Shown: positions 30,782 through 61,150 of the stretch, one piece after another
How positions within the stretch are numbered: the first letter of the stretch is position 1
Layout: every line of letters starts with the position of its first letter
NCBI GenBank assembly: GCA_964016885.1
Contig: OZ024741.1
Coordinates: forward strand, 236,158,001 to 236,222,000
Reading direction: 5' to 3'
Length of the DNA: 64,000 bases
DNA from: Eledone cirrhosa
Taxonomy: Eukaryota
Made by a program: the position numbers and the translations under genes
Notes under the pieces: model-generated
What the model was told of the DNA's origin: nothing
Databases searched by the model: none
The model's input: the letters and a program-made list of their open reading frames with translations, nothing else

Positions 30782-30797
30782 ATATATATATATATAT

Positions 30798-33700
30798 CAT
30801 CATCATCATCATCACCGTTTTACGTCCGTTCTTCCACGCTAGCATGGGTTAGACGGGTTGTCCTGCTGTGTGCAGTGTCTGGTCGGCTGACCATGCCTTG
30901 CTCATACAGGAACTGATCTGGCTTGATTTCTATAGCTGGATGCCCTTCCTAACACCAACCTCATTTACAGTGAGTGCTGGGTGCTTTTTCGTGGCGCCTA
31001 CACGTCCACTTTACAGTGTGGGCTGGGTTCTTTTTTGCCGTGGCACCTCCACGACCACCTTGCGGTGGGGGGTGTGGGGGCATATTGTTTATATGCTTCA
31101 GCATGTACCCATGGGAGGTCGGGTACTCTGTATTACTGCGTGACGCCAGAAGTCACGGTCGTGTGTCATTGACTTTGAGAGGTGTAATTGGGTAAGGTCG
31201 GCTTTTATCACCTCATCCCAGGTCATCTTGGGTCTCCCCACTCCGCGGTTTCCATCAACTTCTAGTGCTCTGCACCTTTTTATGCAGCTGTCATCCTTCA
31301 TACGCATCACATGTCCATACCAGCGCAACCGCCTCTCCTGCACACAGTATTTGATTCCTCTTATGCTCAGTCTCTCTCTCAATTCATTTATGCTTTGTCG
31401 TTCACGTATATTACTGTTACACATCCATCGGAGCATGCAGGCTTCGTTTCTCTCTAATCTACGTAAGTCTTCCACCTTCAGCGCCCAGGTCTCACTACCA
31501 TGCAACATCGCTGTTCGGATACACGCATCATACAGTCTGCCTTTCATTCTGAGGGAGAAGCCTTTTGCAGCTAGCAGTGAAGTAATTCCCTAAACTTCTT
31601 CCATCCCGTTCTTACCCTAGTTATTGTACTTTCTGAACACCCACCTCCGTTGCTAATTCGGTCACCTAGGTAGCAGAAGCTGTCTACTGTTTCTACAGGG
31701 CCCTCCCAGAGATTGGTGGTACTTGTTTCCTGTGGCTGTTTGCTGCTTGCTGTTTCAGCACAGCTGCTGCATGTGAATCCTACATTCTTAATTAAGCTTC
31801 CTGAGATCCCGCTACATCTCTTGTGTACCCATTGTTTGCATTTGGGGCAGAGAATGGAGTTCCTACCTACACCTTTCCTACATACTGAGCAAGGCCATTT
31901 CCCTGAGGGGATCTGGGTTCTGTTTTCTCGTCTACTTACAAGGACCTTAGTCTTTGTCATGTTGACTTTGAGACCCTTTCTTTCTAGTCCCTGCTTCCAG
32001 GTTTGGAATTTATTCTCTAGTTCTACCATAGATTCAGCTATGAGTGCGAGGTCATCAGCATACAGGAGTTCCCATGGGCATCCGGTCTTAAACTCCTCCG
32101 TTATTGCCTGCAGGACTATGATGAACAGGAGAGGGCTAAGAACAGAGCCCTGGTGGACCCCAACCTGTACGCTAAATTCCTCGCTATACTCATTGCTAAT
32201 CCTAACTTTGCTGACTGCTCCCCTATACATGGCTTGTACCGCTTTCACAAGCCATTCATCTACTCCTAGTTTTCTAAGAGCCCACCAGATTACAACACGT
32301 GGAACTCTGTCAAAGGCTTTCTCAAGGTCGACAAATGCCAAGTAGAGTGGCTTACTTTTAGCTAGGTACTTTTCCTGTAATTGCCTCACAAGGAAGAGGG
32401 CATCAGTGGTGCCTCTTCCTGGTACAAACCCAAATTGCATCTCGTCTATTTTCACCCGGTCCCTAATCAGCTGTGCTATAACTCTTTCTGTTACTTTCAT
32501 GACCTGGTCCATCAACTTTATACCTCTATAGTTTCCTCTATCTAGTGCATCGCCTTTACCTTTGTAGCAGTTGACAATGATGCTACTGCACCAATCTTTT
32601 GGTATGGCCCCTTCTAGTATTACCTGGTTAACGATACGTGTGGTTATACAGTTCCTGTATGAGCAAGGCATGGTCAGCCGACCAGACACTGCACACAGCA
32701 GGACAACCCGTCTAACCCATGCTAGCGTGGAAGAACGGACGTAAAACGGTGACCTACAGACCCAGATGCCTTCAGCATCTCGGCAGCTATACCCGATGGA
32801 CCGGTTGCCTTCCCCATATTCATATCTTTGATTGCCTTACTTACTACGCTGCTGCTGACTTGTACTGCTGGTCCCTCTATAGGGTCTACTTGGGGTAGGG
32901 TCTCTTCTTCCCATGCATTCTCCTCATTTAGTAATCTATCATAATGACTCTTCCATGTATCTTTCTTCTCAGCACTTGTGAGGGCAAGCTCACCTTTATC
33001 ATTCCGGATACACTTCTCTCCAATGACATCACAACTATTTCTGACACACTGCCTCGCAATCTTGAACACCTCCTGTTTCTGGTCCTCACGTTGTAAAACA
33101 TGCTTGAATTTTCTATCCTCTGCTTCCCTCCTAGCTAAGTATACTTGTCGCCTAGCTTCCCTCTTGGTCTCTATGTAATGTACCCTGCTCCCCCCGTTCT
33201 TCCATTCTTTCCATTCCTGTCTCTTGGCCTTAACTGCTTCATCTACCTTATTGTTCCACCACCAAGTCACTCTCCTCCTGCTTGAGGTCTTACTCCAGCC
33301 ACAGACCTCATCCGTCGCCTCTAGTAAATTATTTTTTAGGAACTCCCAGTTCTCTTCTACGTTAAATCTCTATCTGTTCTTCTTTACTGTCGTAGGCGTT
33401 GAGTAAAATATCTTTAAATCTGTTACTGGTTGAGGGGACTTTCAGCTTCCAGATCTTTCTTCTCCAGGTTGGCCTCTGTTTCCGGGTTCGTCTAGTTCTG
33501 ACCGTGAGGTCGCTGACAACTAAGCTATGTTGGGATGTACATTCCTCACTAGGGAAGGCTTTTGTGTTTACGACCGTCCATCTGTCACGTCCTCTGATGA
33601 GGATAAAATCTAACTGACTAGAGTGCTCCCCTGATCTATAGGTGATCAGGTGGTTGTCGGGTTTTTTAAAGTTTGTGTTACATATGGACATGTCATTGGC

Positions 33701-34256
33701 GTCGCAGAATTCTAGAAGTCTGAATCCTTCCTCATTCCTTGTGCCAACTCCATGGCCTCCATGTACTCTATTGAAGCCGTCGCAGTGTTTACCTACGTGT
33801 CCGTTAAAATCTCCTGCAATGATTAGGAAGTCCTTGTCGTCTGTTAGAGCAGTAGTGTGTATTAGGGACTCGTAAAACCTATCCTTAAGTTCGTCTGACA
33901 GCCCCGATTGGGGTGCGTAAGCTGATATTATTGTGGTAATTGTTTTATTCAGGACTAGTCTGAGTTTAATGATTCTTGCATTTACCCTGTACACTGAGAT
34001 TACTTTATCTACCCACTTGTCAGCTAGTAGTATACCTACACCACACATCCCATCGTCATTTCCCACCCAGAAAAATTTGTAGCACCGACTTTTTCCTACC
34101 AGGACTCTGGCAGACTCTCCTCGCCATCTAGTCTCTTGCACACAGCATACGTCAACTTCCTCTCGCTCTAGCATTTCTACGATTTCTCCTGCTCTTCCTT
34201 TCATTGAGCCTATATTGATGGTACCAACTCGGAGTTTTGGGCATTTGTCGACACTC

Positions 34257-34257
<1 letters not shown>
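30798..34257 (-). mobile_element. Near-complete RTE-clade non-LTR retrotransposon (family A; APE endonuclease + RT), disrupted
   Basis: APE motifs VQETRW, SAYAPQ, AGDFNGHVG, LDFIL and SQH. RT motifs FVDLEKAFD, QGSVLSP and LYADD, followed by RTE-type RLRWYGHV. The (GAT)n tail is at 30798-30813. Frameshifts lie near 33370 and 31570 and an insertion at 32649-32752. Both ends abut (TA)n. Confidence 0.95.
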
Positions 34258-34292
<35 letters not shown>

Positions 34293-34300
<8 letters not shown>

Positions 34301-35553
34301 ATACTTGGGGAGGGTCATATTTGTGTAATATTGCCAGAATTAATAACAGAACACACTCACTGTTTGGTTGGTTTTCGCTTCTCGCTGTCTTTTATATCGG
34401 TAATCTAACTTACTCGGTCCTCAATGTTGCCATTGACTGACCGACGGTCAAAAATAATACAGATACAATATAGACACAAACACATATATATAGTTTATCA
34501 TAAATCTTTCGTTGCACATCTGCAACATCGTCAGTGGTGTTATATTTTCCTCCTGTTGTGTTGTATGTCTACGCTATTTTTATTCATAAAATCCCTGATC
34601 AGCAAAACCTACCCTTTTAAGAAAACCCACTGTACCAATAGGAAATGTATCATATGTAAGGTGAACCCCGGATAAACTGTAAAACTAGAAACGTAGTATA
34701 TAGCATAAGATGTACAGAGGGTACTTGCAGAAACATGACAACAACATACATAGGTGAGACAGCTCGTAGCATAGGTGAAAGGATAGACCAACACTGGGGG
34801 GAACTAAAAGGACGAAAAAACAGGTCAGTTCTATACGAACATGCTAGACAACAACATGACGGTAACATAGACAACATGGAAATTAGAATAATATCTAAAC
34901 ATAGAAATGACCCAGCAGATAGGCAAATCAGAGAGGCCAGTGAAATAGAAATTAGAAGACCAAAGCTAAACAGAAAGAATGAATGGAATAACAACAACAC
35001 CCAAACAAACAACACTGACCTAAGAGAAGTATAAATAAGTAAATAAAATAAGATAAATAAATAAATAAATACATACACAAGCACAATAACAACAAGCACA
35101 TAAACACACACTAATCACCCATCACACAGCAAACATAACACTATACACACACGTAAACGCATGCGCAAAGAAGACGAAATAAAATAAATAAATATATAGA
35201 CAGACTGAATAAAAATGGCGTAGACATACAACACAACAGGAGGAAAATATAACACCACTGACGATGTTGCAGATGTGCAACGAAAGATTTATGATAAACT
35301 ATATATATGTGTTTGTGTCTATATTGTTTCTGTATTATTTTTGACCGTCGGTCAGTCAATGGCAATATCGAGGACCGAGTAAGTTAGATTACCGATATAA
35401 AAGACAGCGAGAAGCGAAAACCAACCAAACAGTGAGTGTGTTCCGTTATTAATTCTGGCAATATTACACAAATATGACCCTCCCCAAGTATAACAATATT
35501 TGTTTCGACACACGATTTCATATAAAAAACCTCGCAAAACTAATTCATCGCCG

Positions 35554-60843: not shown

Positions 60844-61150
60844 AAAGTGTCTTGCTCAAGGAAACAACACATCTCAGACCGGGTGATGTGTTGTTTCCTT
60901 GAGCAAGACACTTTATTTCACATTGCTCCAGTTTACTCAGCTGTAGAAATGAGATGATAGGGACTGGGGTCCAAATCATATCCACTGCAAAGTGGTCGTG
61001 CAGGTGCCACGGCAAAAAAGCACCCAGCACTCACTGTAAATGAAGTTGGTGTTAGGAAGGGCATCCAGCTGTAGAAATCAAGCCAAAATCAGTTCCCGTC
61101 CCACCCTTGCAAGCAGGGAAAAAGCGGACGTAAAATGAAATGATGATGAT
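60844..61150 (+). mobile_element. SINE with a V-domain-like core and an RTE-derived 3' tail; related copies at about 11330-11465, 11712-11990 and 15500-15725
   Basis: Core TGTTGTTTCCTTGAGCAAGACACTT...TTGCTCC. The 3' part matches the RTE 3'UTRs in this window and ends in (GAT)n. Confidence 0.7.

Follow-up and report, generated by a model that had tools for sequence, protein, structure and literature searches.

An inverted copy of its own 3' terminus within an RTE-like LINE of Eledone cirrhosa is probably a cis-templated insertion

Background

How does a retrotransposon come to carry, inside its own coding sequence, an inverted copy of its own 3' terminus that is identical to the original at every nucleotide? 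The question is raised by an RTE-like LINE in a 64,000-nt window of the Eledone cirrhosa genome (assembly GCA_964016885.1, contig OZ024741.1, positions 236,158,001 to 236,222,000), to which the coordinates below refer unless another contig is named. As described in those sections of the literature that are drawn on here, inverted, microhomology-flanked templated insertions occur as human germline variants (PMC8421209), and snap-back synthesis that makes new microhomology is the model known as SD-MMEJ (PMC5728401). Models of twin priming and of 5' joining are likewise set out in the sections used (PMC2912911, PMC7617806), and further background is found in parts of PMC9115989, PMC13174262 and PMC13526784.

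Results

Host element

The host element and its parts are as follows.

30796..34258, minus strand: host RTE-like LINE, 5'-truncated near the start of its ORF
33365..34255, minus strand: APE-type endonuclease domain (Exo_endo_phos; Pfam match)
31574..32648, minus strand: RT domain (Pfam match to RVT_1), lying downstream of the insert and accompanied by a PHD-finger match
30782..30811, minus strand: (GAT)n tail and (TA)n target run adjoining the source, read from the sequence

From its layout, we take the element to belong to the RTE clade. An APE endonuclease and an RT are combined in a single ORF, and two of the 16 near-full loci (L081 and L089) preserve it free of stops over 1,060 and 1,061 aa. 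The tail was a short tandem repeat, (GAT)n, and not poly(A), in all 30 family loci checked. The host copy itself is dead, carrying a 1-nt deletion near 31581 and a 2-nt deletion near 33367 in addition to the 104-nt insert, and it shows 18 private differences over 3,333 positions (0.54%) relative to its 16 nearest loci.

Several observations were made in passing. The PHD-finger match lies at 31760-31890, within the C-terminal part of the host's single ORF. At the host's 5' junction (34259-34319), the next 10 family bases are repeated exactly about 50 nt further on; this recurrence sits in the neighbouring repeat, past a TA run, and is possibly an anchoring microhomology. The 34293-35499 unit consists of 294-bp inverted repeats (98% identity) that flank an AT-rich stretch with a 124-aa frame resembling a GIY-YIG endonuclease, and is presumably Penelope-like. 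A separate repeat, found at 60982-61099 and at many other loci, has about 113 nt in common with the RTE 3' UTR (30906-31018) at about 90% identity and is possibly a SINE-like partner. Unusual tails occur elsewhere in the family: at L262 (C28 near 78315126), a 107-nt RTE 3' fragment is followed by poly(A) in place of the (GAT)n tail, and L239 and L268 have (ATA)n tails.

Structure of the insert and its junctions

The insert, its source and its junctions lie at the following positions; a slash within a junction sequence marks the join.

32649..32752, plus strand: insert, an inverted copy of the host's own 3' terminus; 104 nt made up of 100 new nt and a 4-nt overlap
30812..30915, minus strand: source, the last 104 nt of the host RTE, which takes in the first TGA tail unit
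32749..32752, plus strand: 4-nt microhomology GTGA (TCAC on the other strand), the putative priming junction, defined by the empty site; family matches resume here
32646..32660, plus strand: left junction ATA/CAG-TTC-CTG-TAT, the putative closing junction, with a 3-bp hairpin

As the initial annotation had it, 32649-32752 agrees with the reverse complement of 30812-30915 at all 104 of 104 positions. Its description of the source as the last 104 nt before the (GAT)n tail needs correcting at the boundary, since these 104 nt already contain the first TGA unit of the tail. That the insert lacks a tail and a target-site duplication (TSD) was borne out: no tail run is present, and the target lost 2 nt instead. 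Several ordinary copies of the family likewise show no TSD.

The empty site was read from an anchor present in 29 of 30 family loci, that is, the host locus and 28 others, some of which overlap. All 28 others read GGTTATA-GT-GTG(A/G), with GTGA in 27 of them, while the filled site reads GGTTATA, then 100 new bases, then GTGA-CCTACAG, a target loss of 2 nt (GT) against intact copies. The final GTGA (32749-32752) can be assigned equally well to the insert or to the target. The left junction is blunt in appearance.

The ORF had also been said to resume almost seamlessly across the insert. The sequence is indeed collinear past it, but the frame is broken by a net gain of 98 nt, and the upstream frame (ORF 32722-33369) ends at a stop eight codons into the insert. 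Intact copies translate as GH-TITTRIVNQ, and the C of the CITTRIVNQ reported earlier is the junction codon. The stretch from 32749 to 34258 is collinear with intact copies, and the earlier distinction from classical L1 twin priming stands on this ground.

The insert thus has the marks of a non-classical (EN-independent) LINE insertion, namely no tail, no TSD, a target deletion and microhomology, and lacks the tail repeats of an independent insertion made through target-primed reverse transcription (TPRT), its sole tail-like unit being the TGA that overlaps the target. It also has those of a locally templated inverted insertion: an inverted nearby copy from the same allele (104/104, with a private SNP) and the 4-nt GTGA microhomology.

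Origin in cis

Two variable sites within the source were used to trace the origin of the insert.

30866, plus strand: private T>C of the host copy, common to the insert at 32698
30871, plus strand: subfamily-level variant, common to the insert at 32693; carried by 820 of 11,768 motif copies

Similarity at the level of the family carries little weight, because the genome holds 12,041 family 3' ends. A 31-nt motif across both variable sites, with 11,768 genome-wide matches, is informative in its exact two-SNP form, because that form is found at only four places, two of which are this pair. T at 30871 defines the subfamily of 820 copies, and C at 30866 occurs 52 times genome-wide; the two together are found at 4 of the 11,768 family 3' ends in 3.0 Gb (the host end, the insert, L202 and L203). 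Of the host's other private changes, L202 and L203 have none at the positions covered by them. Within the subfamily, C30866 is present in 2 of 818 copies outside the host locus, a frequency that matches the A>G background (0.20%), and in none of 79 copies covering the site in a sample of 80 loci, taken in order along contig C1 from the first 100 listed matches, minus a tandem array and the last few. At C1:39998456-40025875, eleven subfamily 3' ends, spaced about 2-6 kb apart, follow one another in what is probably a tandem array. A second host-private motif is unique in the genome.

The check proposed in the initial annotation, whether SNPs private to 30812-30915 recur in the insert, therefore came out in favour of derivation from the host's own 3' end. 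Because the private SNP is common to insert and source, we infer that the insert derives either from the host copy or from the molecule that gave rise to this copy. A parent or sibling carrying the SNP was sought by examining L202, L203 and L204, none of which groups with the host. Small clades that inherited C30866 do exist in the family (L100, L104, L110, L121), one of them on another background, so that the host may have inherited it from a source copy that has since been lost.

Timing of the insertion

Rare differences among family copies are strand-symmetric and CpG-rich, as in chromosomal ageing. Across the 80 subfamily loci, 71 A>G changes were counted against 57 T>C changes, corresponding to rates of 0.20% and 0.27% (rate ratio 0.73) and thus to no A>G excess, and RNA editing was rejected as the origin of the A>G that insert and host have in common. 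The strand symmetry, the CpG richness and the sense-strand A>G rate, which is not raised, argue against RT error or RNA editing as the main source of such changes.

Identity over 104 nt alone says little about timing, because its probability is 0.33 even if both copies have aged since integration. The timing argument turns on one SNP, the shared private mutation. In a simple model, in which the share of private changes predating the insertion is assumed, the likelihood ratio of a later insertion against one at integration is 37, 15, 7.6, 4.0 and 1.8 at pre-insertion fractions of 2, 5, 10, 20 and 50%, respectively. At fractions of 20 to 5%, the shared private mutation favours an insertion after integration by about 4- to 15-fold.

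A recurrent junction at 104 nt

The left end of the insert falls at a position where the family is recurrently truncated. Sixty-three family copies have a 5' junction exactly at 104 nt, versus 11 at a single control position (84 nt) scored with a more permissive pattern, and TA/CAG, as in the insert, is found at 49 of the 63 and at none of the 11. The 63 loci (L270-L331) are for the most part ordinary insertions with a tail, flanked by TA-rich sequence; some represent internal deletions.

An antisense strand ending at 104 reads CATA-CAG-GAA-CTG, and its fold-back could add TAT. The hairpin is weak, at -0.3 kcal/mol before extension and -2.5 kcal/mol after. C precedes ATA at 8 of 47 junctions versus 39 of 574 occurrences in flanks (p=0.019, post hoc). 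At L321 (C22 near 2299269), a 25-nt fold-back palindrome at this hairpin closes the 3' UTR of a long RTE copy, which has no tail and is followed by unrelated sequence. Snap-back on CAG-GAA-CTG of the antisense strand appears to account for the recurrent TA/CAG junction. Since such a snap-back can only start from an antisense 3' end that is free at 104, most likely it was the antisense strand that was newly made, with the sense strand as its template. Under this reading the blunt-looking left junction would hide a 3-nt ATA pairing, a second-junction microhomology that arises only through the proposed snap-back. We also considered the TATA palindrome at 30932-30935 as a priming site for the left end and dropped it, as its use requires an extra, unexplained loss of 15 nt.

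Search for further cases

The 64 family ends in which GTGA is followed by a base other than T yielded no further case, in a motif scan that is blind to inverted inserts keeping tail units or ending elsewhere, and neither did the 80 subfamily loci on contig C1. An insertion scan of 405 kb of aligned family sequence (265 partly overlapping loci) gave no other inverted local copy of at least 10 nt. The insert is apparently a one-off, and no description of the same structure was found in the main texts of the open-access literature searched.

Discussion

The insert is probably real, and a cis-templated inverted insertion of a known kind. The account that we prefer, and to which we give about an even chance of being right, is that of a DNA-templated repair or template-switch insertion, likely made after the host had integrated. 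A break or stalled fork in the integrated host would have been followed by a locally templated patch. The sense-strand end at 32749, ending in TCAC, would have annealed to the GTGA that lies 1.8 kb away at the boundary of the tail, and 100 nt would have been copied from the sense strand. The new end would then have folded back on the CAG-GAA-CTG hairpin and added TAT, and the left end would have been rejoined via ATA with the loss of 2 nt. An alt-EJ or template-switching polymerase is the putative enzyme. Next to the template, the TA run and the AT-rich tail may have melted and trapped a primer ending in TCA.

A DNA template is favoured by the argument from timing, by how rarely starts in the family lack a tail and by a precedent at L276 (C1:250030700-250031250). 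There, a direct-orientation cis copy of 104 nt, together with the tail and about 23 nt of source flank, lies 233 bp from a 204-nt RTE copy, from which it shows no differences and with which it has a rare SNP in common; it has the same 104 junction and is most simply explained as a DNA-templated patch. Several features weigh against the preferred account. The copy starts exactly at the boundary of body and tail, where a reverse transcriptase would start, and of 27 GTGA sites open to a TCAC primer within 2 kb on both strands, one was used. The template is far away for local templating at 1.8 kb; the search for MMB-TI in PMC8421209 covers templates within 100 bp. Simple resection would not expose the template strand in single-stranded form, so that the account has to suppose either strand invasion or a fork that is uncoupled. 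Repair-templated insertion had been put forward in the initial annotation as the alternative to its main proposal; given the timing ratio of about 4-15 and the strand evidence, it has now become the best reading.

Sequence alone does not separate a DNA template from an RNA template, and reverse transcription of the element's own RNA is a possible, though less probable, source of the insert. The sense-strand DNA end (TCAC) would prime on GUGA at the 3' end of the RNA, RT would copy 104 nt, and the cDNA would snap back and be joined like a 5'-truncated copy. Such a route makes the inverted orientation automatic and the start at the boundary of body and tail expected, and the far end coincides with the family's recurrent truncation junction, which is found mostly in ordinary tailed insertions. 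By suffix search, several ordinary 104-nt insertions have no TSD (L270, L278, L290, L297), the target TATA/GT resembles the flanks of ordinary 104-nt insertions, and tail-less, TSD-less L1 inserts associated with deletions are known at breaks from the sections of PMC1920257 used here. The same route meets difficulties in the lack of an A>G excess that would point to RNA editing and in the scarcity of tail-less starts: 64 of 12,041 ends have a base other than T after GTGA, and of these all but about ten keep a TGA run by eye and most are point changes in a normal tail. If it acted during host integration, on the same RNA or on RNA of the same source, which we consider unlikely, the private SNP must already have been in the RNA, and no parent or sibling carries it. 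Its action at a later time, on the host's own transcript, seems to us rather more unlikely still, as a nascent transcript would have to be captured at its own locus, for which no precedent was found in the literature searched.

The main proposal of the initial annotation, a switch of RT onto its own nascent cDNA during TPRT, is quite improbable. The cDNA end at 32648 would move onto its own cDNA at position 104, copy to the tail boundary and return to the RNA at UCAC. The 4-nt overlap suits such a return, an RT error in the first strand would appear in both copies, and snap-back onto internal cDNA positions is a junction class observed for R2 (PMC11371274); in the sections of that paper drawn on here, snap-back precedes the joining to the target and no switch back to RNA is described. 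On intact cDNA, however, a primer ending in TATA is unpaired at 104, its terminal A facing an A. The proposal also has the opposite strand as the new one, leaves unexplained both the stop at the first tail unit and the coincidence of the junction with a hairpin whose folding depends on an antisense end being free, and has the timing ratio against it.

An independent tail-less RTE insertion of 104 nt in reverse orientation, later homogenised with the host's 3' end by gene conversion or recurrent mutation, is highly improbable. Truncated copies of 104 nt are common and often without a TSD, and the diagnostic SNPs are 5 nt apart, so that one conversion tract would span both. The initial annotation had linked an independent insertion to an equally good match with other genomic copies; only 2 of the 11,766 others carry the two-SNP motif. 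Among the loci examined, no other neighbouring inverted pair with an overlap of at least 40 nt is identical, and one 39-nt pair is. General gene conversion among neighbouring copies was not seen in the pairs compared, and, because neighbouring independent copies are generally not homogenised, it is unlikely here.

An assembly or long-read chimera is very improbable: among the matches listed from public runs the empty form alone was seen and no listed read spans either junction, a weak test in that the runs may come from individuals other than the one assembled, their contigs collapse a 12,000-copy family and the matches listed are part of the whole, whereas the junctions bear biological signatures (a 2-nt loss, a 4-nt overlap and a junction found at 62 other places). 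Two Hi-C runs covered almost none of the stretch and therefore have no bearing on the insert.

The comparison with known systems is limited to what the cited sections of each paper contain. MMB-TI (PMC8421209), the four-point template switch (PMC5453318) and yeast fold-back insertions (PMC11724301) resemble the present case in the inverted nearby copy, the junction microhomology, the return to nearly the same position and the occurrence in the germline. In the cited sections their templates lie within about 100 bp, against 1.8 kb here, and the present insert differs further in that it begins at the tail boundary of a LINE and that one of its junctions would have been made via a second, tiny snap-back. 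The likeness to SD-MMEJ, as presented in part of PMC5728401, lies in a short inverted repeat that primes limited synthesis and in new microhomology at an apparently blunt join; unlike that model, the snap-back proposed here would seal a templated insert of 100 nt and appears again where ordinary RTE insertions have their 5' ends, with a polymerase that is putative.

Among events linked to LINEs, non-classical, endonuclease-independent L1 insertions share the lack of a tail and of a TSD, the target deletion and the microhomology, but are mainly attributed, in the sections of PMC1920257 cited, to captured L1 mRNAs, whereas the present insert matches its own host copy. The snap-back of R2 cDNA (PMC11371274) and L1-associated inverted duplications (10.1101/2024.12.14.628481) are, like it, inverted duplications linked to a non-LTR element; in the parts of these reports used they lie at the 5' junction or in the flank, whereas here the host continues for 1.5 kb beyond the insert in its original orientation. 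Twin priming of L1, in the description drawn from PMC2912911, also places a segment of the element in reverse orientation, but it inverts the 5' part and does not restore the orientation, whereas here the 3' terminus is duplicated internally.

Conclusions

As a repair scar, the insert would be one more long-range templated inversion, in a family whose 12,000 copies give an unusually clean pedigree, from which source, direction and rough timing can be read. If the element's own RNA was the template, a LINE can write into its own locus; such self-insertion would differ from twin priming, and a genome-wide class of inverted cis inserts, beginning at the tail boundary and having private SNPs in common with their hosts, would be predicted. 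A 3-bp hairpin in the RTE 3' UTR acting as a hot spot for 5' junctions would tie the natural truncation of LINEs to joining of the SD-MMEJ type; this by-product of the analysis may matter more than the repair scar itself.
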